Positions 20,527 through 44,190 are shown, counted from the first letter of the whole stretch. The stretch is 63,686 nucleotides of DNA, filler included, from 8 parts of 8 records of this genome joined end to end with filler, not necessarily neighbours in it; one strand, 5' to 3'. Program-made: numbers and translations. The notes: generated from the letters alone by a model not told the origin.

Positions 20527-20531
20527 AGGAG

Positions 20532-22377: not shown

Positions 22378-22452
22378 TAGCAAATATATGAGATAAAGAG
22401 AAAGAGAAGCTAGATTTTCAGCTGCTCTTTTTACTTATCTGATATTATAGCA

Positions 22453-24036
22453 TTACTGCTTTTGTCTGCTTGACTTAATCAATGTAAAAATCGTAAATAC
22501 AATAAATACAGTTGCATTTAAATACAAATACCGTACATTCTGTGCTGGATTTGCTACCATATAACCAGCGGCATTAAAAAGCATTGGAGACAGTAGAACA
22601 AAGGACTTGGCTCCATGCCTTTTGATTGCTAATGGTAATAGTAAAAGGATTAAAAGCATCCACAGAGCAGGTCTCCATAAAAACAAGAGCGTTTGCCCGG
22701 AGTACAGAGGATTATATTTCTGAAAGTCAAAGACAAAGGTTAGAATAGGATCTGTAAACTTATGATTGATTTGAAAACAATCAGCAACATATGCATTTCT
22801 AGCTGATGTATACCCATAGTTAGGCACAGCCCATACTATAGCTGTAATTTTCTCATATGCTTCAAAGGCTACAGCAGGATATCTTAGAATAATTGGCATA
22901 GCCTGAGAATAATATTCATCTTTGTGATTTTGGATTTGTTCTGTATCCATTACAGCCATGAAATTGTAGTTAAACAGCCATGAGTCCATTTTGTTTGCGT
23001 TACGCTCTTTTATATAGCCATAATTGATATATTCTTCTGCAAATTTTACTTCTTGCTCACTAAGCTCAGAATACTTTTCCATTGCAATGTGTGATAACAT
23101 TACTGACGGCATAATATCAATGGTTGATGTACCTTTGATAACGTTATAGTCTCCGTGAGTTTGATATTCTGCAAATTCACATGCACCTTTGTATGCTAGG
23201 AACACCAGAATAAATGATGCGCCTATGAGCATTACTCTTTTCAGCTGTTTTTTTATTAGGTACATCAAAGCAAGTGATGCAAATACTGCTGGGATAGTAA
23301 GCAGTGCATTGAATCTGGAGCACCATGCTATAACTGATGCAATTACCAGACCAATAACATGAAAGGGTGAAATCTTATCAGACAATATCATATCAAGTAT
23401 CACCGCAGTAATAAATATCAGCGGTACTATATACGGAACATCCTTGATAACTGTAACTGAATATATAACGTTTACAGGCATCAAACTGATAACAACTACT
23501 GCAATCCATGCAATCTTCCTATTTATTCCGTTTTTCTCCATTACATAGCCAATATAGCCGTATGTAAAAGCGCAGCCAATAAGCTGCATTACTGCAACAA
23601 TGGTAAGCGAGTCCATATGCCTAGCAATGAAATCAATAAACATTGTATAGACAATAGGATGCATACTATTAAAGCTTGCAATCCTACTCTGATAGTAGAT
23701 ATAGCCTGTATCATATGGAATAATGGCTGGATACACACCCAGTAAAATGATTGTGGACATGATAACGCCAGGTATCATATACAAAAAGGTTCTGGAAAAC
23801 TTTGTAGGGTTTGTTTCAGTTTTAATTTCAAATCTGCTAACAAAATACAGAGCAATTGTTGATAACACAAACATACTAATCCATATTAAAAACCCAATAA
23901 TAATACCTACAGCCCCTTCTTTCAGGGTAAATGGTGATATGAAAATACTCTTTGAAGCAAACAGCGAAAACAGGATTAGATAAATCCATCTTCTTGCTTT
24001 ATAATTCTTTATATTATCAAATATTTTTAAGGTCAT
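22453..24036 (-). CDS. Polytopic membrane protein, probable GT-C glycosyltransferase (DUF6020-like)
   Basis: PYDT, HPIVYT, KDVPY, RFNA, RY motifs in a multi-TM protein; downstream of GT2 and DUF2304. Confidence 0.6.
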   Translation of the reverse strand: MTLKIFDNIKNYKARRWIYLILFSLFASKSIFISPFTLKEGAVGIIIGFLIWISMFVLSTIALYFVSRFEIKTETNPTKFSRTFLYMIPGVIMSTIILLGVYPAIIPYDTGYIYYQSRIASFNSMHPIVYTMFIDFIARHMDSLTIVAVMQLIGCAFTYGYIGYVMEKNGINRKIAWIAVVVISLMPVNVIYSVTVIKDVPYIVPLIFITAVILDMILSDKISPFHVIGLVIASVIAWCSRFNALLTIPAVFASLALMYLIKKQLKRVMLIGASFILVFLAYKGACEFAEYQTHGDYNVIKGTSTIDIMPSVMLSHIAMEKYSELSEQEVKFAEEYINYGYIKERNANKMDSWLFNYNFMAVMDTEQIQNHKDEYYSQAMPIILRYPAVAFEAYEKITAIVWAVPNYGYTSARNAYVADCFQINHKFTDPILTFVFDFQKYNPLYSGQTLLFLWRPALWMLLILLLLPLAIKRHGAKSFVLLSPMLFNAAGYMVANPAQNVRYLYLNATVFIVFTIFTLIKSSRQKQ

Positions 24037-24039
24037 TGT

Positions 24040-24399
24040 CTAGTTATTGTCCTTATTTTCTAATTTTTGTTTCAATTCCTGCACTTCGCTTTCAAGCAGT
24101 GCGAACTTCATTGCTAGTTCATCTGATTTTCTTTTGCTGTCCTCACGCTGAATGATTAATCTGAAAATCAGAAGGCCTAAAAAAATGATTGCAAGCAGGA
24201 AGTACATGCTGGGTGGATAATCCACACCAAATGATTTAGCTAAATTGTCCATAGATTTTGGGAAAACGGAAAGGACTATCATTATTACACAGCCAATCAT
24301 CCACAGAACACTTTCACGCTCTGGCAGACGTTTGCTGAGGGTTTGTTTCAGGATAAACGCCGAAGCGATTAGTGAAATAATCAAGAAAAATACACTCAT
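24040..24399 (-). CDS. DUF2304-family membrane protein
   Basis: 3 TM segments, FP..LAKSFGVDYPP, C-terminal coiled coil. Confidence 0.8.
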   Translation of the reverse strand: MSVFFLIISLIASAFILKQTLSKRLPERESVLWMIGCVIMIVLSVFPKSMDNLAKSFGVDYPPSMYFLLAIIFLGLLIFRLIIQREDSKRKSDELAMKFALLESEVQELKQKLENKDNN

Positions 24400-24401
24400 A
24401 A

Positions 24402-25148
24402 TTATTTCCCTTTCTTTTTATCTTTTTCAGTAAATATAGCAGCTAACAACAATGAATACAGCATCATTATCATGTATCTGATTGGATTCCATATGCCTGA
24501 ATGCATAGATTCTCCATCGGTTCTCATACGCATTTTGACAGGTGCTTCACTGACTGAATAGTCCTTTTTTAATACATAAATTAATAAATTTGCATCAGGG
24601 TATTCTGGAAAGCCTGTCATATTGGCATATGTATGGATAACGTTTTTGTCAAGGAGCTGAAATCCACTGGTAGGGTCTGATATCTTTTTGCCTGTAAAGA
24701 GCTTAATAAGCTGTGAAAAAAGAGATGTACCCATGGTTCTGAAAAATCCGTGGTTATAATCAGTCTTATTAAGAAATCTTGAGCCTATTACAATATCGCT
24801 TTTTGTTTCTTGCCGTCTTTCAAAGAGTTTATTGACTTCCGAAGCAATATGCTGTCCATCACCGTCAAACCAGATAGCATTGTCGTAATCCTTATCTAAA
24901 GCGTATTCTAATCCTGTTAACAGTGCAGCAGAATACCCCATATTATATGGATGGGATACTACTTTTGCGCCCATCTGCTGAGCTATAGTACGGGTTCTGT
25001 CCTTACTGTTATCATTGACTATTAATATATCAAAGTCTGGCAAATCATTTCTGATTTCCTCTATTACATTTGCAATATTGCCTTCCTCATTGTAGCTGGG
25101 AATGATAATTATTGTTTTATTATTATCCATATCGAATCTCTTATCCAT
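24402..25148 (-). CDS. GT2 glycosyltransferase (polyprenol-phosphate glycosyltransferase-like)
   Basis: IIPSYNEE, VNDNSKD, FDGDGQH, IGSRF, DPTSGF. Confidence 0.9.
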   Translation of the reverse strand: MDKRFDMDNNKTIIIIPSYNEEGNIANVIEEIRNDLPDFDILIVNDNSKDRTRTIAQQMGAKVVSHPYNMGYSAALLTGLEYALDKDYDNAIWFDGDGQHIASEVNKLFERRQETKSDIVIGSRFLNKTDYNHGFFRTMGTSLFSQLIKLFTGKKISDPTSGFQLLDKNVIHTYANMTGFPEYPDANLLIYVLKKDYSVSEAPVKMRMRTDGESMHSGIWNPIRYMIMMLYSLLLAAIFTEKDKKKGK

Positions 25149-25234
25149 AACAAATTTCTATTTAAACTCTTCCTAGAATACTATAGCATATATCTGACTG
25201 TCCATCAAAGAATTTGCGAATCCATATGATGGAA

Positions 25235-26197
25235 CTAAAAAGTCTTCTTATATAGTTTTCTGTTGTGAAGAACCCATACATTCTGCGAGAATGTACCAGG
25301 CTCCATAGGTTCTAGTACATTTTCCATATCATACATTCTGGCATCTATCATATCCAGATAGTGGAGTATCTCAGCCTCTGGAAACATAGGACGGCGTGGT
25401 GAGCCGAATTCTGGCTCGTAGTGATGGGACAGAATCATGTGCTGCAGCATAAATGATACTTCCTCATCTACCTCTAGCTCCTTTGCCGCTATAGCAATGG
25501 AAGATATACCCTGAGGTATGTGACCTACCAGAAGCCCTTCTCTGGAGTACTCAATAGGCATGCCGGATTCTCCTGCTGTTATCTCTGTTGTTTTGCACAA
25601 ATCGTGCAGAATAATACCTGCATACAGCAAATCACTGTTTAGCTTTGTATACACTGCTAAGAGCCCGTCAGACGCTTTAAGCATTGTAGTTGTATGATAC
25701 AAAAGCCCCGAACGGATGGAGTGGTGATTTTTCAACGCTGCAGGATGCAGTCTTAGGTGAGGTGAATATACCTTTAACATACGGATTACAATCTTTTTTA
25801 TATCAGTATTTTGTATTCTGTTCACATATTCTTTTATTGTGGAGAGCATAGTGTCAGGATCAATTGGTGCACTTGGGATAACAGACATCAGGTCATAATC
25901 ATCATTGCTGTCTGCCAGCCTGATTTTATCCATTCTTACCTGAAGCATCCCCTGCCATTCTGTAGCTAAACCTTTTAATTTAATTATATCTCCTGCAAAC
26001 GGGCATTCGTTTTCGTCAGCAACATCCCATAGCTTTGCATTGATTTCACCTGTAGAATCAGCTAGAGTATAGTCACCGTATTGTTTACCGTTACTGGATG
26101 TTTTGATGTTTCTGGATTTCACCAAATAAAAGCCCTCAACATTTGATCCTTTTGCTATGTCTGTGATTTTCATCATGGTTTGATAAGTCCTCCTCAA
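25235..26197 (-). CDS. yhaM: 3'-5' exoribonuclease YhaM (OB + HD)
   Basis: DSTGEINAKLWD, PAALKNHH, GIILHDLCK, HMILSHH, EAEILHYLD. Confidence 0.9.
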   Translation of the reverse strand: MRRTYQTMMKITDIAKGSNVEGFYLVKSRNIKTSSNGKQYGDYTLADSTGEINAKLWDVADENECPFAGDIIKLKGLATEWQGMLQVRMDKIRLADSNDDYDLMSVIPSAPIDPDTMLSTIKEYVNRIQNTDIKKIVIRMLKVYSPHLRLHPAALKNHHSIRSGLLYHTTTMLKASDGLLAVYTKLNSDLLYAGIILHDLCKTTEITAGESGMPIEYSREGLLVGHIPQGISSIAIAAKELEVDEEVSFMLQHMILSHHYEPEFGSPRRPMFPEAEILHYLDMIDARMYDMENVLEPMEPGTFSQNVWVLHNRKLYKKTF

Positions 26198-26308
26198 TTG
26201 TTAAAAAGGGATTTTCCTAAATATAATTATAGGAAAATCCCTGCAAATTACCTATACCAATAATATGGACTTTGGTACTAATAATATAACATATTTTTTA
26301 TCATTTAA

Positions 26309-27469
26309 CTACTCAATTACTAGGAAATCATGGATGTCACGCTTTGCTCTGTCTTCGTTCCAAGCAATTATATGCTCTGCTTCATAGTGAGCATCTCTCC
26401 ATGACTCAAAGTCATCATAATCGTCTTTGTCTTCAGCTTCCGTGTAGATATCATTCTTTACTTTAGCATAACTGATTAGCTCTTGACTTTCCATATCTCT
26501 CAAATATGAGGAATACATAGCCCCAGAACCAGTTCTGTATGGTATACCAATAGATTCAATAGTTACTCCTGCTTCCATCATTTCAGTAACCAAAGTAATG
26601 ATTTCACCGCCAGCCATATCTGTTTCAGCATATACTGTAGCTGCAAATACACCTGCTGGTACACTCTCTACTGGAACTGTCTTAAGCTTCTCCCATGCTT
26701 CCTGGATAACAACTCTCTGACGATAGTTTCTGGCTTCATCACCTGAAAGTGTATAGCCTGTTTCTTCGTCAACGATTGAAGTATGTCTGTCACGGGCATA
26801 TGATAATACCAGATGGTCACTTAGCTTTTGTTCACCTGTTGTTGTAATTGTACCTAGCCCTGTAATAACCTCGTTATCTATCTGAACTGCGCCTTTTGCA
26901 TATTTTAAAGTTTCAATATCTGTTTCCTGTACATTGATAGTAAGGTTAGGCAGGATGTACATTATTTGAGTAAATGCAACGAATGATACCTTTGCATAGT
27001 AGTCAATTCTTATATCAAATAAATCGTCAAGTACTTGGGCTACTTTAGATGGTCCACCTATATAATTAGCCATATTGAATGCACGCTGTTCACCGTTTAT
27101 TGTAATCTCCAAATCACGCATAAATGATACCAGCTTCATGGTCTTGTCCACTCTGTTAACCTGAAGAATCATAGTTGTATCATTACGTCCTAATCCATCT
27201 CCGTCAGATGAGTCTTCGTCAGTACCTAACAATAGAATATTTATAATATCCTGATCAATTTCCTGTGCTGTAAACATATCTAGAATATCAGCAGGATCTG
27301 GTGCTTCGGTAGCCTCTACTACAGCTCTTGTTGGTTCTGGTGTTGCTTCAGAGCTATTGTCTACAACCTGATCTGTGCTCTCCATTTCTTTTGGACCGCA
27401 GCCAGTTAATACAAATGATGCAAGAAGCACTATTATAAGTACAATTATATTAAGTTTATTTCTCTTCAT
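26309..27469 (-). CDS. LytR-CpsA-Psr (LCP) family lipoprotein
   Basis: Lipobox LTGC; NILLLGTD, RNDT, VSFMRD, YARDR, RNYRQR. Confidence 0.85.
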   Translation of the reverse strand: MKRNKLNIIVLIIVLLASFVLTGCGPKEMESTDQVVDNSSEATPEPTRAVVEATEAPDPADILDMFTAQEIDQDIINILLLGTDEDSSDGDGLGRNDTTMILQVNRVDKTMKLVSFMRDLEITINGEQRAFNMANYIGGPSKVAQVLDDLFDIRIDYYAKVSFVAFTQIMYILPNLTINVQETDIETLKYAKGAVQIDNEVITGLGTITTTGEQKLSDHLVLSYARDRHTSIVDEETGYTLSGDEARNYRQRVVIQEAWEKLKTVPVESVPAGVFAATVYAETDMAGGEIITLVTEMMEAGVTIESIGIPYRTGSGAMYSSYLRDMESQELISYAKVKNDIYTEAEDKDDYDDFESWRDAHYEAEHIIAWNEDRAKRDIHDFLVIE

Positions 27470-27622
27470 CTTTTACCTTCCTTGCCTTTGTTATACTCAT
27501 TATTAGAATAACTGCATAAACAAATATGCCATGTAATAATAACATAAACATGGCATTTTTCCAAGTACTAAAAATAAGTAATTTAAATAATTTGTAATAC
27601 TTTCTTAATTTTTGCTGATTTT

Positions 27623-27937
27623 TTACTTAGTCGCGAAGTCTTTAAGAACATTTTTTGGCATTGCACCGGATGTTTGGTCAGCTACCTGGCCGTTTTTGAA
27701 GAGAATAAATGTAGGAACTGACATAACTCTGTACTTCTGAGCTATCTCCATGGATTCATCTATATCAATCTTTGCTACCTTAACAGTACCTGATAATTCA
27801 TCTGACAACTGATCTACAACAGGGGCTACCATTTTACATGGTCCGCACCATGTTGCTGAAAAGTCGACTAGTACTGGTATACTTGCGTTTATTACTTCAT
27901 CTTGGAAGTTATCATTTGTTAAATGTAATGCTGGCAT
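27623..27937 (-). CDS. trxA: Thioredoxin
   Basis: WCGPC; ATG at 27937 after AAGGAG. Confidence 0.95.
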   Translation of the reverse strand: MPALHLTNDNFQDEVINASIPVLVDFSATWCGPCKMVAPVVDQLSDELSGTVKVAKIDIDESMEIAQKYRVMSVPTFILFKNGQVADQTSGAMPKNVLKDFATK

Positions 27938-28244
27938 AATTAACTCCTTTTGCTTTCTTATCATATTATTAACTATTACAGTTTTATGATTCGCCTATTT
28001 AAAAGATACCTTAATTTACTCTAAATATCAATAGTTGTTTATAAAACATACAAAACATATTATAATCCGCTTAGCAGAATCTATTATAATGAGATGCTGG
28101 TTAATAATTGTCCTTTTAAAGTTGTTTAGGATGTAATATAATAGCATGAATGTGCAATAAACTTTATTCTTTACATCAAATTAATTAAATAGAGATATAC
28201 AGATTATATATTGAAATGATAGCAGGCAAACGAAAGGCGAGAAA

Positions 28245-28976
28245 ATGAAAAAATACTTAATACAAGGCTTTGTTGATATCCATACCCACACAATATCCAG
28301 CGGACATGCATATTCTACAATTACTGAGATAGCAAAACATGCAGGTGAAATCGGCTTAAGCGGCGTGGCGATGACTGACCATACTCCTCTATTGCAGGGA
28401 GCTACTCACCCATTTCACTTTATAAACCTAAGCAGGATGCCAAAGGATATCCACGGCGTAAGGATACTAAAGGGAGCTGAATCCAACATATTAAATAACG
28501 ATGGCGAAGTTGATTTGGATGAATATGTTTTGGAAGAATTGGAGATAGTGCTGGCATCACTTCATCCGCAGACATATGACTTTATCAATAACAAGGATGC
28601 AACTTCTGCTCTGCTGAATACTATGGAAAATAAAAATATTAATATTATTGGGCATCCGGATGATGCAAGAATGCCGTATGACAGGGAGGCTGTAGTACGT
28701 CAGTCAAAGATAACAAATACATTTTTAGAGGTCAATTGTTCATCCTTATCACCTAACGGTTTCCGAGGGTATACCCGTGGATTAATCGTAGAGACTTTGA
28801 AAGAATGTATGAAGCAAGATGTTGCTATAGTTGTTGGCAGTGATGCCCACTACCATGCGGCAGTAGGGAAATTTGACTATGCATTTGATTTATTGGAAGA
28901 ATTGGATTTTCCGAAGGAATTGGTTATGAACCGAAGCCTTCAGACTACACTTGCTGCACTTAATTTAGAATCCTAA
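28245..28976 (+). CDS. PHP-domain phosphatase (YcdX-like)
   Basis: DIHTHT, HAYST, TDH, GHPDD, GSDAH. Confidence 0.9.
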   Translation: MKKYLIQGFVDIHTHTISSGHAYSTITEIAKHAGEIGLSGVAMTDHTPLLQGATHPFHFINLSRMPKDIHGVRILKGAESNILNNDGEVDLDEYVLEELEIVLASLHPQTYDFINNKDATSALLNTMENKNINIIGHPDDARMPYDREAVVRQSKITNTFLEVNCSSLSPNGFRGYTRGLIVETLKECMKQDVAIVVGSDAHYHAAVGKFDYAFDLLEELDFPKELVMNRSLQTTLAALNLES

Positions 28977-29707
28977 AAATCATTCTTTATAACTGCCTGA
29001 TGTGCTTTATACACACGGGTTTTATCCAAATCCTGAACATAGATTGAACCTACCATCTTTACCACATCTCCCTCTGAAACGTGGTTGGGTAGCAATTCTA
29101 TCTTGATTTTAGTATTTAAGTCATACTCATTTTGGCATACTGCATAATTACTATGCAGTTCCTTAACTAGAAGATGTCCGCCTGTAAGTGTATATGTAGC
29201 GATTTCTTTTGTGGTTCTTTTGCCAAATGCATTATGTACTTGGAGCAGGTGAACCTGCCCAATTCTTATCATTGCCATAGGTACAGATACTGTTGGTATA
29301 GGACGTATAGGCATTACATAGCTCATTGCAATATAGGGAAAATCGATGTGATCGCTTCGATTAATGCCTCTTTTGAACATTATATTCTCAATATATTGCT
29401 GCAAAGATTCCAGCTTACTTGCATTACCACGAAGTGTATACACCAGCTGAGACTTATTCCTTGGGTCAAGGTACTCTAAGTCATTACAAACAACAGTAAA
29501 AGGTACTGATTTCCTGCACACCTCTTCAAGTGCTGATTCGATAGAGTTCATAGACCTTTTATTAACGTTTTTTATATATTTTAATATTATTCTATGGTTG
29601 TCTTTCTCGATAAAGCCTCCTGAAAGGAATTTCTTTAGCTCTTGAGATGTATTATCCAGAGAATCCTTAACTTCTTGTGAAAGTTCAATTGTTACACATG
29701 CATCCAT
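28973..29707 (-). CDS. 2H-phosphoesterase (ThpR-like) domain, motifs degenerate, with DUF3006-like C-terminus
   Basis: ThpR-like layout with HRII and PYIA where HxT is expected; C-terminal LPNHVSEGDVV. Confidence 0.5.
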   Translation of the reverse strand: MDACVTIELSQEVKDSLDNTSQELKKFLSGGFIEKDNHRIILKYIKNVNKRSMNSIESALEEVCRKSVPFTVVCNDLEYLDPRNKSQLVYTLRGNASKLESLQQYIENIMFKRGINRSDHIDFPYIAMSYVMPIRPIPTVSVPMAMIRIGQVHLLQVHNAFGKRTTKEIATYTLTGGHLLVKELHSNYAVCQNEYDLNTKIKIELLPNHVSEGDVVKMVGSIYVQDLDKTRVYKAHQAVIKNDF

Positions 29708-30397
29708 TTAGTTTCTTCTGCTGCCTCTCGAAATTAATATCAGTCTGATTAGCTGCATAACAGCTACAAATAATGCCGCAACGTAAGTCATAGCTGCTGC
29801 TTTTAGTACTTTCTTTGAGCCAGCTAATTCTTCCTGAGTCATATAATTGTTTGCTCCCAAGATAGCAAGAGCTCTCTTTGAAGCATCAAATTCTACTGGA
29901 AGAGTCAGCAGCTGAAATACTACAGATAATGAAAAAGCCAGAACTCCGATAAATGCAATCTGCGGAATGGAGAATATCAAACCTATCAGTATCAAAGGCA
30001 AAACCATCTTTGAACCAATATTGGTTGCAGGAATAATGGCATTTCTTATGGTAAGAGGAACATATTCCTCGCTGTGCTGGATTGCGTGACCTACTTCATG
30101 GGCAGCAATACCTAGAGCTGCCATTGATGTAGATGAATAGACTTCGCTGGATAGTCTTACAGCGTGAGCCTTTGGGTCATAGTGGTCACTTAATCCCTGA
30201 CCTTGTGCCATCTCCACATTTACATAATTAAGACCATTGTCATCTAGGATTTTTCGTGCCAATGCAGCACCTGTCCATCCCTGATGAGTAGCATATTTCG
30301 AATATTTTTTATATGTTGACTTGACTCTTGTCTGAGCCCAGGCTGCAATAATCATTGCAGGTATCAGCAATACTATTGTCCAATCATAGTAAAACAT
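29708..30397 (-). CDS. Zinc metallopeptidase (YugP-like)
   Basis: LSDHYDP, AAHEVGHAIQ, TLPVEFDASKRAL, AAAMTYVAA. Confidence 0.92.
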   Translation of the reverse strand: MFYYDWTIVLLIPAMIIAAWAQTRVKSTYKKYSKYATHQGWTGAALARKILDDNGLNYVNVEMAQGQGLSDHYDPKAHAVRLSSEVYSSTSMAALGIAAHEVGHAIQHSEEYVPLTIRNAIIPATNIGSKMVLPLILIGLIFSIPQIAFIGVLAFSLSVVFQLLTLPVEFDASKRALAILGANNYMTQEELAGSKKVLKAAAMTYVAALFVAVMQLIRLILISRGSRRN

Positions 30398-30408
30398 TTT
30401 TTCATCTC

Positions 30409-31095
30409 CTATTTAGTACGTTTTGTTTGCCTGTTGTACCTAAACTTATGATACTTAGTAACAAAGTGGACGAAGATTGAGGATTTGCTGCACCTGAGCA
30501 CACCATCATCCATTAATGCGTTAAAAAAATCATTTGCATTCAGCCTGGTGCCTGCTGGTATCTCTACATAGGATTTACCTAATTCAAATATTGTATGTGC
30601 ATCGCTTCCGCAGGTGGCAGCCATTGTATCAGTCTGCAGTTGTCTGGCTAAGATATTATCGTCGTCAAATACATTCCTGGAATTAAATACTTCTATCAAA
30701 TCGGCTCTTGCCAGTGCCAGATTGAGAGCGGAAGGATTTAGCTTGGATGAGCGCAGTCTGCATGTAGGGTGTGGAATAAGGACAAGCCCTCCCTGAATAA
30801 TAATTGCATCAATTGTCCAGTTTATGTCTCTGCCTGATGGAATATTTTCCTTTAGGAACAGTCCTATTATCTCACCTTGCTTGGTGCGTATTTCGCTTCC
30901 TACTATTATCCTGTCAGGATATTTTTCATGAAGGATTTTTGCTCCCTCAATAGTATTATGGTCTGTAACTGCTAATCCGAAGTCCATATTCTTTCTTAAA
31001 AACTTATCTATTTTTGTAAGTTTATTGTTTGAATCTGATGAATACTCTGTATGGACATGCATGTCAATCTTTGTAAAGTTGGCTGTGTAATTCAT
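30409..31095 (-). CDS. PHP-domain metal-dependent hydrolase
   Basis: DMHVHTEYSSD, VTDHN, PHP, EVFNSR, GSDAH. Confidence 0.88.
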   Translation of the reverse strand: MNYTANFTKIDMHVHTEYSSDSNNKLTKIDKFLRKNMDFGLAVTDHNTIEGAKILHEKYPDRIIVGSEIRTKQGEIIGLFLKENIPSGRDINWTIDAIIIQGGLVLIPHPTCRLRSSKLNPSALNLALARADLIEVFNSRNVFDDDNILARQLQTDTMAATCGSDAHTIFELGKSYVEIPAGTRLNANDFFNALMDDGVLRCSKSSIFVHFVTKYHKFRYNRQTKRTK

Positions 31096-31098
31096 ATA

Positions 31099-31722
31099 TC
31101 AGCTAAGTTCCTCGTAGTTTTCGTGCTCTACCATTTCCCATCTGTCCATGGGCCATGTGATGGCAGCTACTTTGCCTAAGATCATATCTTCATAGTCTAG
31201 TGCTCCGATATAACGGGAATCTCTACTGTGATTTCTATTGTCACCCATTACAAAAACACAACCTTCAGGTACTGTGATTTCGCTGAAATCAGATGTCATT
31301 ATTTCATTAATGTAATCTTCTTCGATTTCAACACCATTTATTATAAGTTTACTGTTTCTTATTTCAATTGTATCTCCCTGTAGACCAATTACTCTTTTTA
31401 CATATTTATCGAAGCTGTTGGGATATTTTGTGATAACAATATCTCCTCTAGATACATCCTCAATTGATTTATATGCCATTCTAGAGCACCATACTCTCTC
31501 TCCATCGTGAAGAGTAGACTCCATTGAGTATCCATCTACTTTTACCATATGACCTACATAATTGAAGATGACAAGAACTATAGCAACTGCAATAATTATC
31601 GAAACTATCCACTCCATAATTTCTCTTGCTATGGCTTCATCCCTTTGCTCTTTTGTCATATCTGGTGTTATTAACTTTTTGTTTTTGCTATTGCTCATGT
31701 TGATTCCTTGTATACTGTACAT
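31099..31722 (-). CDS. lepB: Signal peptidase I
   Basis: GYSMESTL, YVKRVIG, GDNRNHSRDSR. Confidence 0.93.
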   Translation of the reverse strand: MYSIQGINMSNSKNKKLITPDMTKEQRDEAIAREIMEWIVSIIIAVAIVLVIFNYVGHMVKVDGYSMESTLHDGERVWCSRMAYKSIEDVSRGDIVITKYPNSFDKYVKRVIGLQGDTIEIRNSKLIINGVEIEEDYINEIMTSDFSEITVPEGCVFVMGDNRNHSRDSRYIGALDYEDMILGKVAAITWPMDRWEMVEHENYEELS

Positions 31723-31834
31723 ATCGTTAAATATNNNNNNNNNNNNNNNNNNNNNNNNNNNNNNNNNNNNNNNNNNNNTTAATTAATTAANNNNNNNNNN
31801 NNNNNNNNNNNNNNNNNNNNNNNNNNNNNNNNNN

Positions 31835-32494
31835 AGAGGAGATACTCATATTGACTGATTTTGCTATATCATCTATCAAAAAAGTTTCGTGGAGATTTTG
31901 ATTTATAAAAGAGATTGCTTTTGATATTTTATATGAGTTGCTTTCTATGAAAGCTAGTTGTTGTAACTCTATATTTTGGTTTGATACTAGGAGTCGATAG
32001 AGTATCTCTTTTAGATATATCTTTGATAATACCTCTATATCATTTGGTCTATCATTCAATTTTACTAGTCTTAAAATAGAACCTTTTAAATCATCGTCTA
32101 AATAGTACGTTGAAGCAGAAAAGTTTGTAGTATCTACTTTATTCAAACTCATAGAAAACTCCTCAAGAGCCTGAAAAATTTGCTCTTGGGTAAAGAGTAT
32201 TTGTATAGATAGAAAAGGCTCTTTTGGACTTGCTTGGATAATCTTCCCTGATACTGCTAAAAAAGTTGAAGAGACAAAATATGATGAACTGTCATATTCA
32301 AAGATTTTATCTCCTATGAATACAGTTTTTGTGCCTTGCAAGATTATAAAGAGTGATGGCTCATAGACAGTATGAAGTACCTCTCCACTACTTAGGGATT
32401 TAAAAATTTTGACAAAAGGAATATTTGTTCCATTTATCCCTTCTTCCAAAGGTATCTTTTGAACTATATTTTTAAATTCATCTAATATATTCAT
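31835..32494 (-). CDS. AraC-family regulator with AraC_N (YqhC-like) domain, 3' truncated
   Basis: VYEPSLFIILQGTK, EILYRLL, IAKSVNMSISS. Confidence 0.9.
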
Positions 32495-32506
32495 GTAAAA
32501 ATTCCT

Positions 32507-32517
32507 TGCCTATTTCT
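32507..32517 (-). promoter_or_regulatory. Putative AraC-binding motif upstream of araC
   Basis: AGAAATAGGCA, similar to AGGATTAGGCA upstream of the SDR gene. Confidence 0.4.
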
Positions 32518-32537
32518 ATATTTTATGATATATTTCT

Positions 32538-33281
32538 TTAAATAAACCCACCATTTACTTTTATAGTCTGTCCTGTAATCCAATGTGCTTTTTCACTAAC
32601 TAAAAGTTCAATCACATCTGCTATATCTTCGCTCTCTCCTAGCCGTCCAAAAGAGTTCATTTTGCTTAACATCTCAATTTGCTGTTCAGTTTTTCCTTTC
32701 ATAAATAGCTCTGTTTTCACAGGTCCTGGAGCAATTGCATTTATAGTTATCCCTTTTTCTCCAAACTCTTTTGCTAGTTGTCTAGTGATTTGTTCAACAG
32801 CGCCTTTTGAAGCAGCATAAACGCTATATGCTGGAAACATTGCACTTGTAACAGAAGTTGAAAAGTTTATAATTCTTCCATTGTTTTCCATATGTTTCAT
32901 AGCTTGTTGACAGGCAAAAAAAGTCCCTTTTACATTGACTGCAATTTGTCTATCAAACTCTTCTTCGCTAACATTTGCTATTGGATGATTTATCATTAAT
33001 CCTGCATTATTAATAAGAATATTTACTTTTCCATAGATTTTAATTGTTTGCTCAAAAAGTTTTTCTAGTGCATTAATTTTAGATATATCTGCTTGTAAAG
33101 CTAGAGCTTTTCCACCATCAAAAATAATTTCATCTACTATTTCTTGGGCTTCTTTTTCATTTGAATTATAATTTATAACTGTAGTTATTCCCAATCTTCC
33201 TAATTGAATAACAACTTGCTTGCCTATTCCTTTTGATGCACCAGTCACTATGGCTACCTTACTATCTATTTGTTGACTCAT
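32538..33281 (-). CDS. Short-chain dehydrogenase/reductase
   Basis: TGASKGIG, NNAG, YAASK, IAPGP. Confidence 0.95.
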   Translation of the reverse strand: MSQQIDSKVAIVTGASKGIGKQVVIQLGRLGITTVINYNSNEKEAQEIVDEIIFDGGKALALQADISKINALEKLFEQTIKIYGKVNILINNAGLMINHPIANVSEEEFDRQIAVNVKGTFFACQQAMKHMENNGRIINFSTSVTSAMFPAYSVYAASKGAVEQITRQLAKEFGEKGITINAIAPGPVKTELFMKGKTEQQIEMLSKMNSFGRLGESEDIADVIELLVSEKAHWITGQTIKVNGGFI

Positions 33282-33358
33282 AATATTTTCCTTTTTATTT
33301 TATAGAAAAAGTATATAAGAAAAATTTCTTTTTAACCAGTTAATTTATAGATAATTTA

Positions 33359-33369
33359 TGCCTAATCCT
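33359..33369 (-). promoter_or_regulatory. Putative AraC-binding motif upstream of the SDR gene
   Basis: AGGATTAGGCA; second similar copy at 32507-32517. Confidence 0.4.
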
Positions 33370-33407
33370 ATTTTATTTTAAATCTTTTATTATAAAGTAT
33401 CTTGTAC

Positions 33408-33464
33408 ATATAACGTTTGACTACACTGATAGATTTATCTATTCAGTGCTAGGATTTGTTATAG
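33408..33464 (-). mobile_element. attC: attC site (57 bp) closing cassette 2
   Basis: CTATAAC-5-CTA[G]CACTG[A]ATAGAT-AA-ATCTAT CAGTG TAG-6-GTTATAT; the HAD stop TAA lies inside R''; CTATAAC is the reverse complement of the GTTATAG that opens the cassette. Confidence 0.88.
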
Positions 33465-34151
33465 AATTTTCTTTCTTAAAAATAACTCTAATTCGTCATA
33501 ATCATTAAAATATTCTTGAGGTTCAAAATTATCTAATTTACTATTAATTAAAAAAGAGTTTTTTGTTTTAGCTAACATGGGCAAGTCGTTACTTCCATCA
33601 CCAAAAACATATAAGTCTTTTTTACTATACTTTAATTCTGTTAATAAAATATCAATGGCAGTCCCTTTATCAAAGCCTTTTGGAGTAAAATCTACACTAT
33701 CTTTATGATAATATGTGTTTATATTTTCATGTTCAAAACTTTGAGCAAAAAGATGAATTTTCTTAATATCATTTATATTAATTGGAAACACTGTTAGATT
33801 TACATCATTTGGCTGAAACCATATCGTTTGTTTAAATTCTTGTGAATAGTCTTTTCTAATCTTAAAAAAGACTTCCTGTATAATTCCAGATACTTCTATT
33901 TTGTAATATTTTTTAGGAGGGAATGTACTATTATACATTATTGTCCCACCATTTTCACCAATTACCATACAATTGTCTAGTCCTAATTGACGTATGAATC
34001 CAGCTATATACCCAAATGGTTTTCCAGATGCTAACACTACTTGATGTTGTTTTGAAATATTTTGCAATGTATTAACAAGACTGTTGTTCACTGGTTTATT
34101 AATATCACAAAGTGTTCCATCTATATCGAATATTAATAATTTTTTAGTCAT
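33459..34151 (-). CDS. HAD-superfamily IIB (Cof-like) phosphatase
   Basis: FDIDGT, LASGK, GENGG, DKG, FGDGSNDLPM. Confidence 0.9.
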   Translation of the reverse strand: MTKKLLIFDIDGTLCDINKPVNNSLVNTLQNISKQHQVVLASGKPFGYIAGFIRQLGLDNCMVIGENGGTIMYNSTFPPKKYYKIEVSGIIQEVFFKIRKDYSQEFKQTIWFQPNDVNLTVFPININDIKKIHLFAQSFEHENINTYYHKDSVDFTPKGFDKGTAIDILLTELKYSKKDLYVFGDGSNDLPMLAKTKNSFLINSKLDNFEPQEYFNDYDELELFLRKKIL

Positions 34152-34160
34152 ATACTTCCC

Positions 34161-34811
34161 CTATATATCTTTATTTAAAAGATATTTAATTCCTAATGAA
34201 GCTTTTGAAGTTAATACATTTGTATCAATTTCATCTAAAATATTATCAAGACTAAATATTTTAACTTCATCTTTTTGACAATTTAAAATAGCTAGATCTA
34301 AATCATCTTTTAAAACATACACACATAAACCTATCATAACAACTGTTTCTCTGTGTTGGTTATCTATTGTACTGATATTATTTTCTATAGCAAATCCTGG
34401 AATTTGTTCAAGACTAACAATTTTTGAATTGAAAAATTGTTTATTTTTGATTTTTTTATAAATAGAATGATTTTCAAATTGAACAGATCCAAAAACATCA
34501 TACTTATTGTTTTCAACATTTGTATTAGGTTTATCTTTTTGTCTATCATATACAATAACCCTTTGCCCATCTGTAAATATAGCAAAGGTAGAAAACCTAG
34601 TATTATTTATCATTACCCTATGAAAGTTTTCTTTTATCTCATTTTCTTCATTTTGAACTAACCATTGTGGAGAAATTTGTTCTTCTAAAACTTTTTTGTA
34701 AAATATCTCTAAATCTAATACCGTATTGGGTATAAAATCATTCTCCAATGTTAAACAATTTTGAAAAGTTGTTTTTGTTGATTGTGAATCAATAATATTT
34801 TGTTTTTTCAT
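34161..34811 (-). CDS. Hypothetical protein, possibly degenerate Nudix fold
   Basis: AGAGG RBS; FAIFTDGQRVIVYDR and VMIGLCVYV resemble Nudix strands; no Nudix box. Confidence 0.55.
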   Translation of the reverse strand: MKKQNIIDSQSTKTTFQNCLTLENDFIPNTVLDLEIFYKKVLEEQISPQWLVQNEENEIKENFHRVMINNTRFSTFAIFTDGQRVIVYDRQKDKPNTNVENNKYDVFGSVQFENHSIYKKIKNKQFFNSKIVSLEQIPGFAIENNISTIDNQHRETVVMIGLCVYVLKDDLDLAILNCQKDEVKIFSLDNILDEIDTNVLTSKASLGIKYLLNKDI

Positions 34812-34827
34812 TTTCTACCTCTAGCTT

Positions 34828-37152
34828 TTATGTATTTTTTGTTGTTACTCTACCATGTTGAATATGAGAAATAAGTAAACCACCATCTTGATGATTTAGT
34901 TTCTCTAGATATTCTTTTTTATTATCATTAAACATTTTAGAGTAATATTTATCCTTAAAATAGAATAATATTACTTTTAAAATATCTAATTTAAATTCTT
35001 CTAATTTTAAAATCTTAATTCCTTCTTTATTTAAATCATTGAATCTTTTATCTATCATGTATTGAAATTTATCTTTATTTATATTTGTTTCATTAACAAT
35101 ATTAAAATTATAATCTTTTAACTTTTCTATAATATCTTCTTTATTATCAGTGATATTATCAAGTCTAATTTCAATATTTTCATATAATGAATTTGGTATA
35201 TCTTTATTATCAAATATATCTTTTAAGTTTTTATAAAAGAATACAGTAGAAGTTGTTCCTATCTCTTTATATATTTGTTTGTTATCAAATAATGTACTAA
35301 AATTTTCACTAAACAATCCATTAGAAAAGCTTTTCTTTTCCCTTTTCAGGAATTCAGCAATAAACATATTTGTACCCAACGCGGAAGCGATTGCAGAAAA
35401 TCCATAAATCGATACTACATTGATATTTTTATCATCGTTTTTTATTTTAAATGATAAAAATTTAGCATCACTATTTACACTATTTCCTTTATCATCATTT
35501 ACTCTTTGATCTAAAAGAAAATTCCATCCAGATACAGGTTGATTAACTCCCATAAAAAAATTAAATGCACTTTGATGATTTTCTCTTTTATCTAAGTCTT
35601 GCTTATGATCAAAATCAAAATAATTATCCATAAATCCAAATAATCGTTCATCTTTAAATCTTAATCGATGCTTGTTAATTAAATGAGCTAACGCTCTATT
35701 ATGTTCTGCCCCACCTATAGTTAAAACATCTATGTTTTTTTCTTCATCGTTAATTAAACATGATGGTAATTCAATATTGCTATTAGGATTATTTTTATCA
35801 TCAACTGGTAATGACAACATCATTTTAATAGGAATTTTTATATATACTTTGTTAGGCTTAACTGATTCAGATATATATCTTACTAGTTTTTGACGTGAAT
35901 CCTCATTTATTGTAAACTTATAAATATTCTCAATTTCACTTTTTAAATCTGCTTTAAGAACAAAATCTAATGTTTTACTACTGTTATTTACTCTATTGGT
36001 ATATTTAAAAAAATCATCATTATACAAATCATCTACTTTTTTATCTAACATAATACCATTTGAAAAATATATTTTTGCATTGATAAAAGATTTATCATTT
36101 TCTTTCTTACATACAATTTCATTTTTTGTTGAAGTTGACATTTCAAGCAATTCTTTTAAAAAATGAAATTCGTCAGAATTTTCTATTTCTGATATATTTA
36201 TAATATCTTTTTCTTCTGATAAATTAAAAATTGTATATAAAACTTGACTCAATAAACTAATACCAAAAAGATTTCTATCACTAAGAGTATTTATTACATC
36301 TACTTTTTTTATTTTCTCATTATCATTAAGAATTAAATCTGCTAAAGATTGTGCTACTACTTTATCTTGTTTAGATTCTTTATCAAACTCAATAGATTCA
36401 TCTTTTATAATTCTAGAAAATAAAATATCATAGATATGTAAGTCAAAAGTGTCTTTAATACTTTTAAGCCAATTTTCATTTAATTTACTTTTATCAACTT
36501 CTAACACTACATGATCAATAAATTTATTATCAAAAAAAGGTCTATCACAATATGAATGTTCTAAATTAAAATTATTTTTCTGTGAAACTTTTGATAATAT
36601 TTGAATACCAGTTGAGTCTGATTGATTTGATAAATATAAACTAAAGAAGTCTCTGCTTTTATATTTCTTAATTTTACCTTCATATTTTTTGATCTCATCA
36701 TATAGGTAGGCGTGATTTTTAACTAAATCATCATCATTTTTAATGATAAGATCAAAACCTTTATCAATATAAGTATTAATAATTTTTGAAGGTTTCAATA
36801 GTTCCGTAACTTTACTTTTTAATTCATCTGAAATAGTATTAGTAATAATTTTATCTAAAATTTTATTGTCAAAAAAAGAACCACTTAAAAAGTCATCTTT
36901 AATATCTGTAAGTATCGGTAACAACTCTTCAATATTTGCATCTGTTATTTTACCTGTTCCTTTTTTCAAAAATTCTCTAATCTTTAATAATAATTTATTA
37001 CGTTTTCCTAATACAATCTCTAATTCATCTTGCAAATCATTAAACAAAAGATTAAAATCTTTATCATAAGCAATATTTTTTGTAATATTATTCATCCTAT
37101 TTTTATCAATTGATAAACCGGTCATATAAACTAAATGTTCTTTTTTATCCAT
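34828..37152 (-). CDS. Hypothetical 774-aa protein
   Basis: Long ORF in very AT-rich DNA with AAGGA RBS; no recognisable family; motif DVLTIGGAEHNRAL. Confidence 0.75.
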   Translation of the reverse strand: MDKKEHLVYMTGLSIDKNRMNNITKNIAYDKDFNLLFNDLQDELEIVLGKRNKLLLKIREFLKKGTGKITDANIEELLPILTDIKDDFLSGSFFDNKILDKIITNTISDELKSKVTELLKPSKIINTYIDKGFDLIIKNDDDLVKNHAYLYDEIKKYEGKIKKYKSRDFFSLYLSNQSDSTGIQILSKVSQKNNFNLEHSYCDRPFFDNKFIDHVVLEVDKSKLNENWLKSIKDTFDLHIYDILFSRIIKDESIEFDKESKQDKVVAQSLADLILNDNEKIKKVDVINTLSDRNLFGISLLSQVLYTIFNLSEEKDIINISEIENSDEFHFLKELLEMSTSTKNEIVCKKENDKSFINAKIYFSNGIMLDKKVDDLYNDDFFKYTNRVNNSSKTLDFVLKADLKSEIENIYKFTINEDSRQKLVRYISESVKPNKVYIKIPIKMMLSLPVDDKNNPNSNIELPSCLINDEEKNIDVLTIGGAEHNRALAHLINKHRLRFKDERLFGFMDNYFDFDHKQDLDKRENHQSAFNFFMGVNQPVSGWNFLLDQRVNDDKGNSVNSDAKFLSFKIKNDDKNINVVSIYGFSAIASALGTNMFIAEFLKREKKSFSNGLFSENFSTLFDNKQIYKEIGTTSTVFFYKNLKDIFDNKDIPNSLYENIEIRLDNITDNKEDIIEKLKDYNFNIVNETNINKDKFQYMIDKRFNDLNKEGIKILKLEEFKLDILKVILFYFKDKYYSKMFNDNKKEYLEKLNHQDGGLLISHIQHGRVTTKNT

Positions 37153-37175
37153 TTTATTTCCTTTTATTTGAAGTG

Positions 37176-37192
37176 AATAAATTATATCAATT
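37176..37192 (-). promoter_or_regulatory. Extended -10 promoter inside cassette 2
   Basis: TGATATAAT (TGnTATAAT) about 30 nt upstream of the ATG at 37152. Confidence 0.55.
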
Positions 37193-37220
37193 TTGTGTCA
37201 CAGTTTACGTCATAAAAAAT

Positions 37221-37967
37221 TCAAACATTATTTATCTCACATAAAAGCTGTTTTAGTGCAGGAACAGTATTGACATTTTTTAATTCATCTATAGTTTTTA
37301 ATCCAGTATCAGTATGATACTCAGGGTTATTTAACTCTATTTCACTTTCATGCAAGTTTGTAAAAAGAGGTATTCTAAACTCTAGCGTATTTACTGAAGA
37401 AGAGAAATAAAACCAAGCCTTTGATTTTTCTATTAACTTACCTTCTAAATATAGTTCAACATTATATGTTTTTAAAGGATATTTATTACATTTAAAAGAT
37501 GTTTTATAAAACTCTGTATGATTTGAGTTTTTAATAATATCTTTTGATATATCAGGATATATTTGTTTGCTATTTTTTAGTACTTCTATCTCTTCAATAG
37601 TCTCTTTTATTCCTGTTTCAAAAACAGCTCTATCACATCTTCCAGCAGGAGTAGTCCAAAAACCAGGATCAAACTGAGTATCTAAACTTCTTTGAGTGAC
37701 AGCTAATTTATCATTAATAAATAAAAAACTTCCACTTGAAATTAGAACATTTTTCATATTATTTGTATTTGTTTGTTTTATATTAGCTAGTTGAGAGATT
37801 TTTATCAAGTCTAAATCTATATTATCAAAGGTAAAAAGATTATTTTGGTTTACATATATTTTTATAGTATCATGTTTGATTATAACTTCTGAAGCATACC
37901 AGAAAACTTGATCATTATATTTTTTATCAATTTTATTATTTAATAATGACTTTACATTTAAAGACAT
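37221..37967 (-). CDS. Nudix hydrolase (248 aa)
   Basis: ATG at 37967 after AGGAG; LAVTQRS..DPGFWTTPAGRCD..ETGIKETIEEI, a shortened Nudix box. Confidence 0.8.
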   Translation of the reverse strand: MSLNVKSLLNNKIDKKYNDQVFWYASEVIIKHDTIKIYVNQNNLFTFDNIDLDLIKISQLANIKQTNTNNMKNVLISSGSFLFINDKLAVTQRSLDTQFDPGFWTTPAGRCDRAVFETGIKETIEEIEVLKNSKQIYPDISKDIIKNSNHTEFYKTSFKCNKYPLKTYNVELYLEGKLIEKSKAWFYFSSSVNTLEFRIPLFTNLHESEIELNNPEYHTDTGLKTIDELKNVNTVPALKQLLCEINNV

Positions 37968-37980
37968 GTTGCTCCTATTT

Positions 37981-38050
37981 CTATAACGTTTGTCGTGAGC
38001 AATAATTTTCCCGCTAGGGTAAATTATTGGTCTCCTCGTACTTGTTAGGT
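37981..38050 (-). mobile_element. attC: attC site (70 bp) closing cassette 1
   Basis: ACCTAAC-5-CGA[G]GAG..CAATAATTT.CCC-TAGC-GGG.AAATTATTG CTCACG-6-GTTATAG; ACCTAAC is the reverse complement of GTTAGGT at 38558-38552. Confidence 0.88.
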
Positions 38051-38557
38051 GTTTATTACCCATAAATTAATATATCTCTTAATTCATCTAGTGTTTCTGG
38101 ATGTTGTTTCATTTTTTGTATGATTTGATCAACAGGTGCATTATAAGTTTTCCAAAAACTAGATGGAACATGTAGAATAATTGATGTATTTACATCTTCT
38201 TTATTTTCTACTACCATAAATGATTTATAAAATATAGGTTTTTTATCACTATCTTTAAATAGTTTTAAATAAAAATTTTTTTTATCTCCAAATGACTGAC
38301 TTTTATACAAATCCATTACATCGTGATAATCTTTATGGCAATCAAGACAATATGTTTTTAAATGCTTTTCATCATATTCCCAAGGTTTTTTGCCATTAAT
38401 ATAAATTTCATGATGAACATGTAGTGTTTTATCTTCAGCTTGACATCCTAAACATTTCCAATTATCTCGTTCCATAATTTCTAAACGTTTTCTCTGCCAT
38501 TTAGGGTGTTTTAATAATTCTTTATAATTCATATTCTTCTTTCAGTTTTTCACCTAA
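37987..38557 (-). mobile_element. Integron gene cassette 1 (571 bp, HNH gene)
   Basis: G|TTAGGT about 20 nt before the ATG; attC starts 5 nt after the stop. Confidence 0.85.
38056..38532 (-). CDS. HNH endonuclease-like protein with zinc-binding CxxC pairs
   Basis: WQRKRLEIMERDNWKCLGC, LHVHH, PWEY, YCLDCHKDYH. Confidence 0.85.
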   Translation of the reverse strand: MNYKELLKHPKWQRKRLEIMERDNWKCLGCQAEDKTLHVHHEIYINGKKPWEYDEKHLKTYCLDCHKDYHDVMDLYKSQSFGDKKNFYLKLFKDSDKKPIFYKSFMVVENKEDVNTSIILHVPSSFWKTYNAPVDQIIQKMKQHPETLDELRDILIYG

Positions 38558-38583
38558 CTATTTAATAAACATACATTATATAC
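38552..38583 (-). mobile_element. Putative attI (or first core site) with possible Pc -10
   Basis: GTATATAATGTATGTTTATTAAATA-GTTAGGT: GTTRRRY core not preceded by the CAAAC/hairpin seen in both attC; TATAAT at 38580-38575; intI absent because the contig ends here. Confidence 0.55.
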
Positions 38584-38820
38584 NNNNNNNNNNNNNNNNN
38601 NNNNNNNNNNNNNNNNNNNNNNNNNNNTTAATTAATTAANNNNNNNNNNNNNNNNNNNNNNNNNNNNNNNNNNNNNNNNNNNNAATACTCTGTTGTCGGT
38701 TTCTCTTTCCCAAAGAGAAACCTATAGTAAAGATATCGGGTTAAAACATTTTTGGGGCAAGCATCACGCTTGTAATTTTGAACATAATAATTTTGTTCAT
38801 AAAAAAAGGAGAAAAAATAA

Positions 38821-44089: not shown

Positions 44090-44190
44090 NNNNNNNNNNN
44101 NNNNNNNNNNNNNNNNNNNNNNNNNNNNNNNNNTTAATTAATTAANNNNNNNNNNNNNNNNNNNNNNNNNNNNNNNNNNNNNNNNNNNNA

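Follow-up and report, generated by a model that had tools for sequence, protein, structure and literature searches.

Is the region between positions 33,408 and 38,583 of the DNA analysed here a fragment of an integron cassette array, and if so, how much of an integron does it contain? This DNA (hereafter the window, 63,686 nucleotides, to which all coordinates refer) is composed of eight unrelated contigs with a guanine-plus-cytosine (GC) content of 25-57%. The putative array is carried by the metagenome contig 31835-38583 (6749 bp, 25.3% GC), where every gene is located on the minus strand. From the high-coordinate end, these genes encode an HNH-like protein of 158 amino acids, a Nudix hydrolase, proteins of 774 and 216 amino acids, a HAD-IIB phosphatase, a short-chain dehydrogenase/reductase (SDR) and an AraC-family regulator. 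The initial annotation had described an array of excisable cassettes bounded by attC recombination sites, with the integrase gene intI, the attI site and the cassette promoter Pc at its upstream end. The two co-oriented attC-type sites bounding two cassette-like units stood up to the analysis; the complete integron (intI, attI/Pc) and the excision of the cassettes remain conjectural. We estimate at about 0.72 the probability that the contig carries a genuine attC-bounded fragment of a two-cassette array. Arrays of this kind are known; the size of cassette 2, its operon nature and its uncharacterised cargo are the unusual features here.

Three cores beginning with GTT are present on the minus strand, all at the coordinates claimed in the initial annotation. 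The first core, GTTAGGT (38552-38558, G at 38558), forms the 5' boundary of cassette 1; GTTATAG (37981-37987, G at 37987) is the R' of attC-like site 1 and GTTATAT (33408-33414, G at 33414) the R' of attC-like site 2. The implied lengths are 571 bp for cassette 1 and 4573 bp for cassette 2. The R'' of each site had been described as an exact reverse complement, its partner being the opening core of the same cassette, and this holds in both cases: the R'' of site 1 (38044-38050, given on the plus strand) corresponds at 7/7 positions to the core 38552-38558, and the R'' of site 2 (33458-33464) at 7/7 positions to the core 37981-37987. The wrong R''/core partners match at only 4-6 of 7 positions. 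This complementarity across the cassette boundaries, which is the pattern expected of units recombining between the G and the TT of the core, is supported by both pairs. GTTAGGT is found in a single copy on the cassette strand of the contig, inside the leader of 51 nt, as predicted for a cassette boundary (P of about 0.002 from composition), and both GTTAGGT and its partner ACCTAAC fit the strict consensus GTTRRRY/RYYYAAC.

The structure of attC sites offers a second line of evidence. According to Nivina et al. 2016 (PMC5027507), the ends of these sites are 57-141 nt apart, the spacers comprise 5-6 nt, and the extrahelical bases are located on the R''/L'' arm at position 16 (usually G) and position 23/24 (a conserved T) of the bottom strand, with a 6-bp stem between them; only the AAC/GTT triplets are conserved among all attC sites (PMC5027507). 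As a reference set, 17 different real attC sites were collected from 12 plasmid records, which hold 13 class-1 integron arrays. Most of them share the layout R'' (7 nt), 5 nt, L'' (3 bp, an unpaired base and at least 3 bp), stem-loop, L' (6 nt), 5-6 nt and R' (7 nt). From these 17 sites we built a covariance model, R1, in which the R boxes, spacers and L boxes are consensus positions and the loop is a gap, the same design as that of the attC model of IntegronFinder (PMC4889954). The training sites of R1 are GC-rich, and the E-values it gives are approximate. On the control loci it gave 33 matches on the cassette strand (34.9-77.2 bits), some of them outside the training set; the remaining control matches are two at 12.9 bits, both on the reverse strand of real sites. 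R1 also matched L007:1159-1218, next to qacEdelta1 and beside an IS110-family insertion, which is unexplained in the plasmid gene table, and L012:6520-6613, between dfrA1 and intI1, which implies an unlisted first cassette. Rfam, which appears to hold no attC family, gave no match in the window at gathering thresholds and one chance snoRNA-like match on the contig.

Site 2 (33408-33464, minus strand, 57 nt; R'' CTATAAC, R' GTTATAT) reads CTATAACAAATCCTAGCACTGAATAGATAAATCTATCAGTGTAGTCAAACGTTATAT on the top (coding) strand, from 33464 down to 33408. Positions 1-7 of this sequence are R'' and positions 8-12 a spacer. Positions 13-15 are paired with 42-44, position 16 is unpaired (C on the bottom strand), positions 17-22 form a 6-bp stem with 36-41, position 23 is unpaired (T on the bottom strand) and positions 24-27 are paired with 32-35 around a loop of 4 nt (28-31); the second spacer (45-50) and R' (51-57) complete the site. 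There are six pairs in the R box and six in the L box, which is perfect. The fold of the bottom strand has an energy of -7.3 kcal/mol (z -3.5 relative to shuffles), compared with -6.5 kcal/mol for the top strand. The spacers, the length, the unpaired positions 16 and 23 and the 6-bp stem agree with the canonical description (PMC5027507). R1 gives site 2 its highest score in the whole window, 18.6 bits (E 0.015; E 0.0016 in the contig); the next-best matches there have 10.6 and 8.3 bits (both strands of 63.7 kb, filters off), and every non-attC match in 245 kb of control loci scores lower as well (at most 12.9 bits). Every structural feature of attC sites that was checked is present in site 2.

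Site 1 (37981-38050, minus strand, 70 nt; R'' ACCTAAC, R' GTTATAG) reads ACCTAACAAGTACGAGGAGACCAATAATTTACCCTAGCGGGAAAATTATTGCTCACGACAAACGTTATAG on the top (coding) strand, from 38050 down to 37981. The stop codon of the HNH-like gene precedes it by 5 nt, and the ATG of the Nudix gene follows it after 13 nt. An A.A mismatch is found in the L box (positions 15 and 55), and the unpaired bases of the R''/L'' arm are position 16 and positions 20-21, with 3 bp between them. A stem of 9+3 bp with a 4-nt loop follows positions 20-21. The DNA fold of the bottom strand (-13.1 kcal/mol, z -5.7; top strand -10.4 kcal/mol) is the strongest hairpin of the contig. The R box of site 1 is 7/7 in the circular-junction form, and the site is accepted by a rule-based attC grammar, which accepts 11 of the 17 real sites. 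A search with an attC covariance model, for which the initial annotation had named the lack of a match as a point of refutation, was made with R1 and ranked site 2 first but gave only 4.0 bits for site 1. Site 1 has the layout, placement and boundaries of an attC site and departs from it in the spacing of the unpaired bases and in its R1 score.

These two departures are what speaks for a reading in which only site 2 is a real attC, perhaps an orphan or a decayed one, while site 1 and the first core are due to chance and there is no two-cassette array. A meaningless match in a coding region (34713-34756) has 4.3 bits, about the score of site 1, whose unpaired-base spacing is not canonical; moreover, IntegronFinder treats single attC-like sites as likely false positives or as uninformative (PMC4889954). 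We consider this reading improbable. The strongest hairpin of the contig would have to fall by chance exactly between two genes, with the 5/6-nt spacer layout and 11 terminal nucleotides in common with site 2, and with an R'' that matches at 7/7 positions a core which is unique on its strand and lies in the leader of the cassette's own gene.

The two sites resemble each other in several respects. As the initial annotation had stated, the spacers are of 5 nt on the 5' arm and 6 nt on the 3' arm in both (from the model alignment), and the shared ends CAAACGTTA are located at the claimed coordinates. This motif has exactly two copies in the 63.7-kb window, both at the sites, a count that is weak by itself (at least two copies in 10/100 shuffles), and the last 11 nt of the sites are identical. 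Both are terminated by the inverse triplets AAC (in R'') and GTT (in R'), with lengths of 70 and 57 nt that are within the attC range. Each directly follows a co-oriented gene's stop codon and stands ahead of the ribosome-binding site of the next gene. In both sites the more stable fold is that of the bottom strand, in which G exceeds C but purines are a minority. The other intergenic regions of the contig show no fold (z -0.14 to +0.67).

Hairpins placed after genes may also be stabilisers, attenuators or factor-dependent terminators, whose likeness to attC sites would be a coincidence helped by low sequence complexity. AAC/GTT pairs are indeed plentiful in AT-rich DNA. The grammar alone is loose: it gives 14 strand-specific matches in the window, and an average shuffled contig still yields about 2.3. 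CAAACGTTA is reached twice in 10/100 shuffles, and elsewhere the operon of cassette 2 (see below) is followed by a different, non-attC sequence. On the other hand, no T-run and no terminator call was found at either site, the two terminator-like sites of the contig being both elsewhere, and the extra bases of the hairpins all lie on one arm, in site 2 at both canonical positions and in site 1 at position 16 of these. Site 2 also has the top score with a model trained on unrelated real sites, and ordinary stem-loops do not predict a complementarity of 7/7 across cassette boundaries. The joint occurrence of the two sites was evaluated with the grammar and an added filter on whole-site fold density (E/L at most -0.115), a statistic that replaced the inner-stem energy, which was dropped when 313/1000 shuffles passed it. 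After filtering, the window retains both sites and one match in a GC-rich contig. Among 2000 dinucleotide shuffles of the contig, at least one filtered match was obtained in 59 and two on one strand, as in the real contig, in none (0/2000). The thresholds were chosen after the sites had been seen, so this statistic is only indicative. Taken with the other points, it leaves the stem-loop explanation with a low probability, similar to that of the single-site reading.

A third explanation, which sees in the hairpins the ends or copies of some other element that uses hairpins (IS200/IS605-type ends, REP-like repeats or a miniature inverted-repeat transposable element), is far less probable. It would account for one-strand hairpins with common terminal motifs on both sides of a 4.5-kb segment. 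However, the stems have no common sequence and only their ends are alike, the contig contains no transposase or HUH gene, no repeat-family behaviour was observed elsewhere in the window, and the R/L-box geometry is specific to attC sites.

The upstream end of the array is close to the end of the contig, which extends only 25 nt beyond the first core. The claim that this core lacks a hairpin is borne out, as the last 49 nt of the contig are unfolded (z +0.4). In the final 25 nt there is no CAAAC foot of the kind present in both attC-like sites and no truncated match to the covariance model; being foot-less and unfolded, they fit either attI or a divergent attC. The first core may be attI or else the R' of another attC, and its crossover is predicted between G 38558 and T 38557. 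The TATAAT upstream of it, presented in the initial annotation as a sign of Pc, exists at 38575-38580 but lost its value as evidence: a consensus scan found 58 promoter-like matches, with 52.5 +/- 8 expected, and since such matches are at chance level in DNA of 25% GC the hexamer is uninformative. No integrase (Phage_integrase) domain was detected in any of the eight contigs of the window; with only 25 nt of contig beyond the first core, this negative does not amount to the absence of an integrase. If the array is genuine, the chances of an adjacent integrase are roughly even.

Compared with the attC sites of class-1 integrons (the 60-nt sites of aadA1/aadB/catB3 type, and those of aac(6')-Ib4 and blaOXA-1), the sites of the window have the same layout, R''(7)-5-L''...L'-6-R'(7), with an unpaired base after 3 bp of L'' and then, in site 2 as in class 1, 6 bp, a second unpaired base and a short stem-loop; they have a similar length (57-60 nt, counting site 2) and are likewise placed behind a co-oriented gene's stop codon. 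The sites of aac(6')-Ib4 (L008:6220-6291) and blaOXA-1 (L017:11527-11616) end in the same TCAAACGTTAGA-type foot, which means that the CAAAC spacer also occurs outside this contig. In contrast, the window sites are AT-rich (30-40% GC, and 50-71% in class-1 attC), their first unpaired bottom-strand base is C where class-1 sites usually have G, their cores deviate from GTTRRRY, their R1 scores are 18.6 and 4.0 bits instead of 35-77 bits, and no resistance gene is present in the cassettes. Genomes reportedly hold about as many clusters of attC sites without an integron integrase (CALIN) as complete integrons. The window region resembles the CALINs, of which 279 were counted in PMC4889954, in that two or more attC sites share one orientation, that the sequence at hand shows no integrase and that the cassettes are unlike those of mobile integrons. 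CALINs are defined there with less than 4 kb between attC sites, whereas the window sites are 4516 bp apart; this exceeds the default clustering distance, and default settings would not join them. The defence cassettes of sedentary chromosomal integrons described by Darracq et al. (10.1101/2024.07.02.601686) are likewise cassettes of unknown function in chromosomal arrays, and the cargo here has putative immunity-flavoured parts (a domain found elsewhere in fusion with TIR, alongside a Nudix hydrolase and an HNH-like nuclease). These systems are described as streamlined for small cassettes (10.1101/2024.07.02.601686), whereas the large unit of the window comprises 4.6 kb and four genes; its components have no meaningful match to known defence models.

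If the array is genuine, the minus strand of the contig would represent the promoter-distal end of an integron-type array, with two cassettes followed by chromosomal genes. The bottom strand (the plus strand of the window), when single-stranded, would fold each site into an imperfect hairpin composed of the R box, the unpaired 5/6-nt spacer, the L box and the bases extruded on the R''/L'' arm. An integron integrase, encoded next to the array or elsewhere in the genome, would bind this hairpin and cut between A and C of AAC (between G and TT on the coding strand). Recombination of the first core with site 1 would then release a 571-bp circle with the HNH-like gene, and recombination of site 1 with site 2 a 4573-bp circle with the genes of the Nudix hydrolase, the 774-amino-acid protein, the 216-amino-acid protein and the HAD phosphatase; in each circle the R box would be a perfect 7-bp duplex. 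We infer this mechanism of recombination and excision from the known integron system. Cassette 2 appears to have been captured as a whole operon, whose Nudix-B-HAD core is free of attC in other genomes.

The single gene of cassette 1 (38056-38532, minus strand) encodes a protein of 158 amino acids, recognised by its open reading frame (ORF) and its family matches. It consists of an N-terminal zinc-finger domain similar to HNH nucleases (NCBIfam IscB HNH region, E 2.3e-5; PADLOC ZorE HNH, 4.7e-4) and a variable C-terminal part. One of its 60 relatives has 94% identity with it; in most, the similarity is confined to the N-terminal 40-70%, and the names HNH endonuclease and McrA occur among them.

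Cassette 2 contains four genes on the minus strand. Gene A (37221-37967) encodes a Nudix-fold hydrolase of 248 amino acids, identified by its relatives, its structural model and its matches in the PDB. A mechanically called ORF of 280 amino acids starts at ATG 38063 and overlaps site 1; the lengths of the relatives and the AGGAG ribosome-binding site before ATG 37967 indicate that it is not the real gene and that the start is ATG 37967. The 53 relatives have 197-294 amino acids (225-265 in 50 of them), some being named MutT/NUDIX by JGI and three matching PF00293. The model has a mean predicted local distance difference test score (pLDDT) of 94.8 and 130 PDB matches at E<=1e-3, led by the NadM-Nudix ADP-ribose pyrophosphatase, Ap4A hydrolases and MutT. 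A PADLOC match of this ORF to HEC-02A (E 1e-4) was ruled out, given that HEC-02A belongs to the ABC ATPases (10.1101/2024.01.29.577857) and that the fold of this protein is Nudix. In the 68-nt gap between genes A and B (37153-37220, minus strand), a TG-n-TATAAT motif that resembles an extended -10 element is visible by eye, although it was not listed by the consensus scan; it could be an internal promoter that makes the large cassette independent of Pc.

Gene B (34828-37152) encodes a protein of 774 amino acids from an unnamed family. None of its 36 relatives is named, and many polar residues are invariant among them. Its model, a confident one (pLDDT 77, predicted template modelling score 0.82), gave no match at E<=1e-3 with Foldseek in the PDB and BFVD, and no match was obtained in Pfam (28 members scanned), with a sequence profile against the PDB, in the Atlas or with tblastn against plasmids. 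Gene C (34161-34811) encodes 216 amino acids and has 78 relatives, most of which are aligned through their residues ~200-405. An N-terminal TIR_2 domain was found in 9 of 12 relatives scanned, and the N-terminal half matched the PADLOC TIR-TM model in 7 of 8. By sequence comparison, gene C is a free-standing copy of the domain that elsewhere forms the C-terminal half of TIR-domain proteins of ~400 amino acids. The possibility that it encodes a second Nudix domain came from the Atlas, where 17 of 30 feature matches belonged to the NUDIX set with a low shared-feature count, and was not supported by a profile-profile comparison with the Nudix family (probability 0.5%). Gene D (33459-34151) encodes a HAD-IIB (Cof-type) phosphatase of 230 amino acids (Pfam Hydrolase_3, 5.8e-29; NCBIfam Cof-subfamily and HAD-SF-IIB), with a stop codon that falls within the R'' of site 2. 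The HAD cassette 'psp' of class-1 integrons was discarded as kin of gene D, only generic HAD motifs being common to both.

PADLOC gave no meaningful match to known defence models for any component of the cassettes, and none for gene C itself. The parts of cassette 2 hint at a chemistry of NAD+/ADP-ribose or nucleotide signals, perhaps in immunity. A more specific proposal is that the 4573-bp unit is an intact, mobilisable cassette carrying an undescribed four-gene immune or counter-immune system that acts on NAD+/ADP-ribose-type or nucleotide signals. We regard this as doubtful, if a little less so than the single-site and stem-loop explanations. Should it be true, cassette 2 would be among the largest functional cassettes, missed by default integron-finding settings, and the system would combine a Nudix hydrolase, a 774-amino-acid enzyme with a new fold, a TIR-partner domain and a HAD phosphatase.

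Relatives of the cassette 2 genes were found together in four metagenome-assembled genomes (MAGs). A, B and HAD are all present in a Nautiliales MAG (L001, B at L001:907-3060) and in a Campylobacterales MAG (L003, B at L003:9986-11893). A Bacteroidales MAG (L002) has only B and HAD, on a short contig, and a Thiotrichaceae MAG (L004) has B followed by a distant HAD. The identity with the window genes is 65-73% for HAD (L001-L003), 49-55% for A and 33-53% for B, and at least 12 contigs of matching size are common to the match lists of A and B. Nudix-B-HAD is thus an uncharacterised, conserved three-gene operon of Campylobacterota, Bacteroidales and Thiotrichaceae MAGs. Gene C gave no tblastn match in L001-L004 and is inserted in the operon only in the window. 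Fixed gene order in related genomes had been named in the initial annotation as an argument against mobility; the neighbourhood of Nudix-B-HAD differs in each of the three related loci that retain flanking DNA, so the gene order is not fixed. In L003 the operon is surrounded by housekeeping genes; no integrase was found within 10 kb, and nothing in its flanks is attC-like. Upstream, an SDR gene (L003:8167-9183) overlaps the operon, and downstream a small gene (L003:12610-12951) is cupin-like by eye; these neighbours hint at a function in sugar or nucleotide metabolism and not in immunity. The SDR of the window, which is not part of the cassette, is only 28% identical to that of L003. Three of the four genomes with operon relatives belong to the Campylobacterota or Bacteroidota, the fourth being from the Thiotrichaceae. 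Integrons have already been reported in Campylobacterota and Bacteroidota (PMC8618304), and the taxon therefore adds no novelty.

Several of these observations, with some others, weigh against a genuine array. Concerning the boundaries, GTTATAG, GTTATAT and the R'' CTATAAC deviate from the RYYYAAC/GTTRRRY consensus, and for cassette 2 the match of R'' to its own core and to the next one differs by a single base (7/7 vs 6/7). Concerning the sites, the score of site 2 is far below those of real class-1 sites with R1 (35-77 bits), and site 1 has an E-value of 9.9 in the contig, where it ranks third. The L box of site 1 contains a mismatch and only 3 bp separate its unpaired bases, when 6 bp are needed for efficient recombination by IntI1 (PMC5027507). 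The bottom strands of mobile-integron attC sites are purine-rich (PMC5027507) and those of the window are not (purine fractions 0.43 and 0.47). The post hoc choice of the grammar thresholds belongs here too. No integrase was seen in the window, where the contig stops 25 nt past the first core, and none is near the operon in L003, the one related locus with 10-kb flanks. In all four related loci (L001-L004) the operon has neither an attC-like flank nor an R1 match, from which it follows that it is not always a cassette. Finally, a four-gene cassette of 4573 bp is more than twice as long as the largest cassettes cited in 2016 (~2 kb, PMC4889954), and recombination drops as cassette length grows (10.1101/2024.07.02.601686). 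The probability given above for the array takes these points into account.

Beyond site 2, the contig continues with an SDR oxidoreductase gene (32538-33281, minus strand, Pfam) and the gene of an AraC-family regulator, truncated where the contig ends (31835-32494, minus strand, Pfam), which are ordinary chromosomal-type genes. The GC content is 22-26% in the cassette genes and 30-32% in these flank genes. On the contig, neither folding nor the covariance model revealed an attC site after the SDR gene or inside cassette 2, and the 43-nt gap between the SDR and AraC genes has no fold. The eight contigs of the window are separated by N44-TTAATTAATTAA-N44 linkers (7090-7189, 16016-16115, 31735-31834, 38584-38683, 44090-44189, 50412-50511 and 56919-57018). 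The joined contigs are not genomic neighbours, and ORFs that cross a linker (e.g. 31787-32494) are consequently artefacts. Among the other contigs, 16116-31734 (37.5% GC) comes from an endospore former (SpoIVA, Germane-domain protein) and also carries cell-envelope genes (LytR_cpsA_psr, GT2 glycosyltransferase). The segment 44191-50411 encodes a hybrid histidine kinase of 1332 amino acids, with a Cache sensor and four receiver-domain stretches, followed by a response-regulator/PAS protein of 720 amino acids that runs off the contig. In a contig of 57% GC, 50512-55095 contains a 2-hydroxyacyl-CoA dehydratase-type cluster (HGD-D, two BcrAD/BadFG ATPases) with an AMP-binding CoA ligase, a set typical of the anaerobic degradation of aromatic compounds or amino acids.

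In uncultured AT-rich bacteria, integron cassettes are a large and poorly charted gene pool. Boundary complementarity can reveal an array that standard settings would probably miss, given that its sites are 4.5 kb apart and that one of them is weak. A whole conserved operon seemingly packaged as one cassette bears on the origin of cassettes and on the limits of their size. The cargo, in which a 774-amino-acid protein without a recognised fold accompanies Nudix, HAD and TIR-partner proteins, agrees with the idea, put forward recently, of integrons as stores of immune systems.

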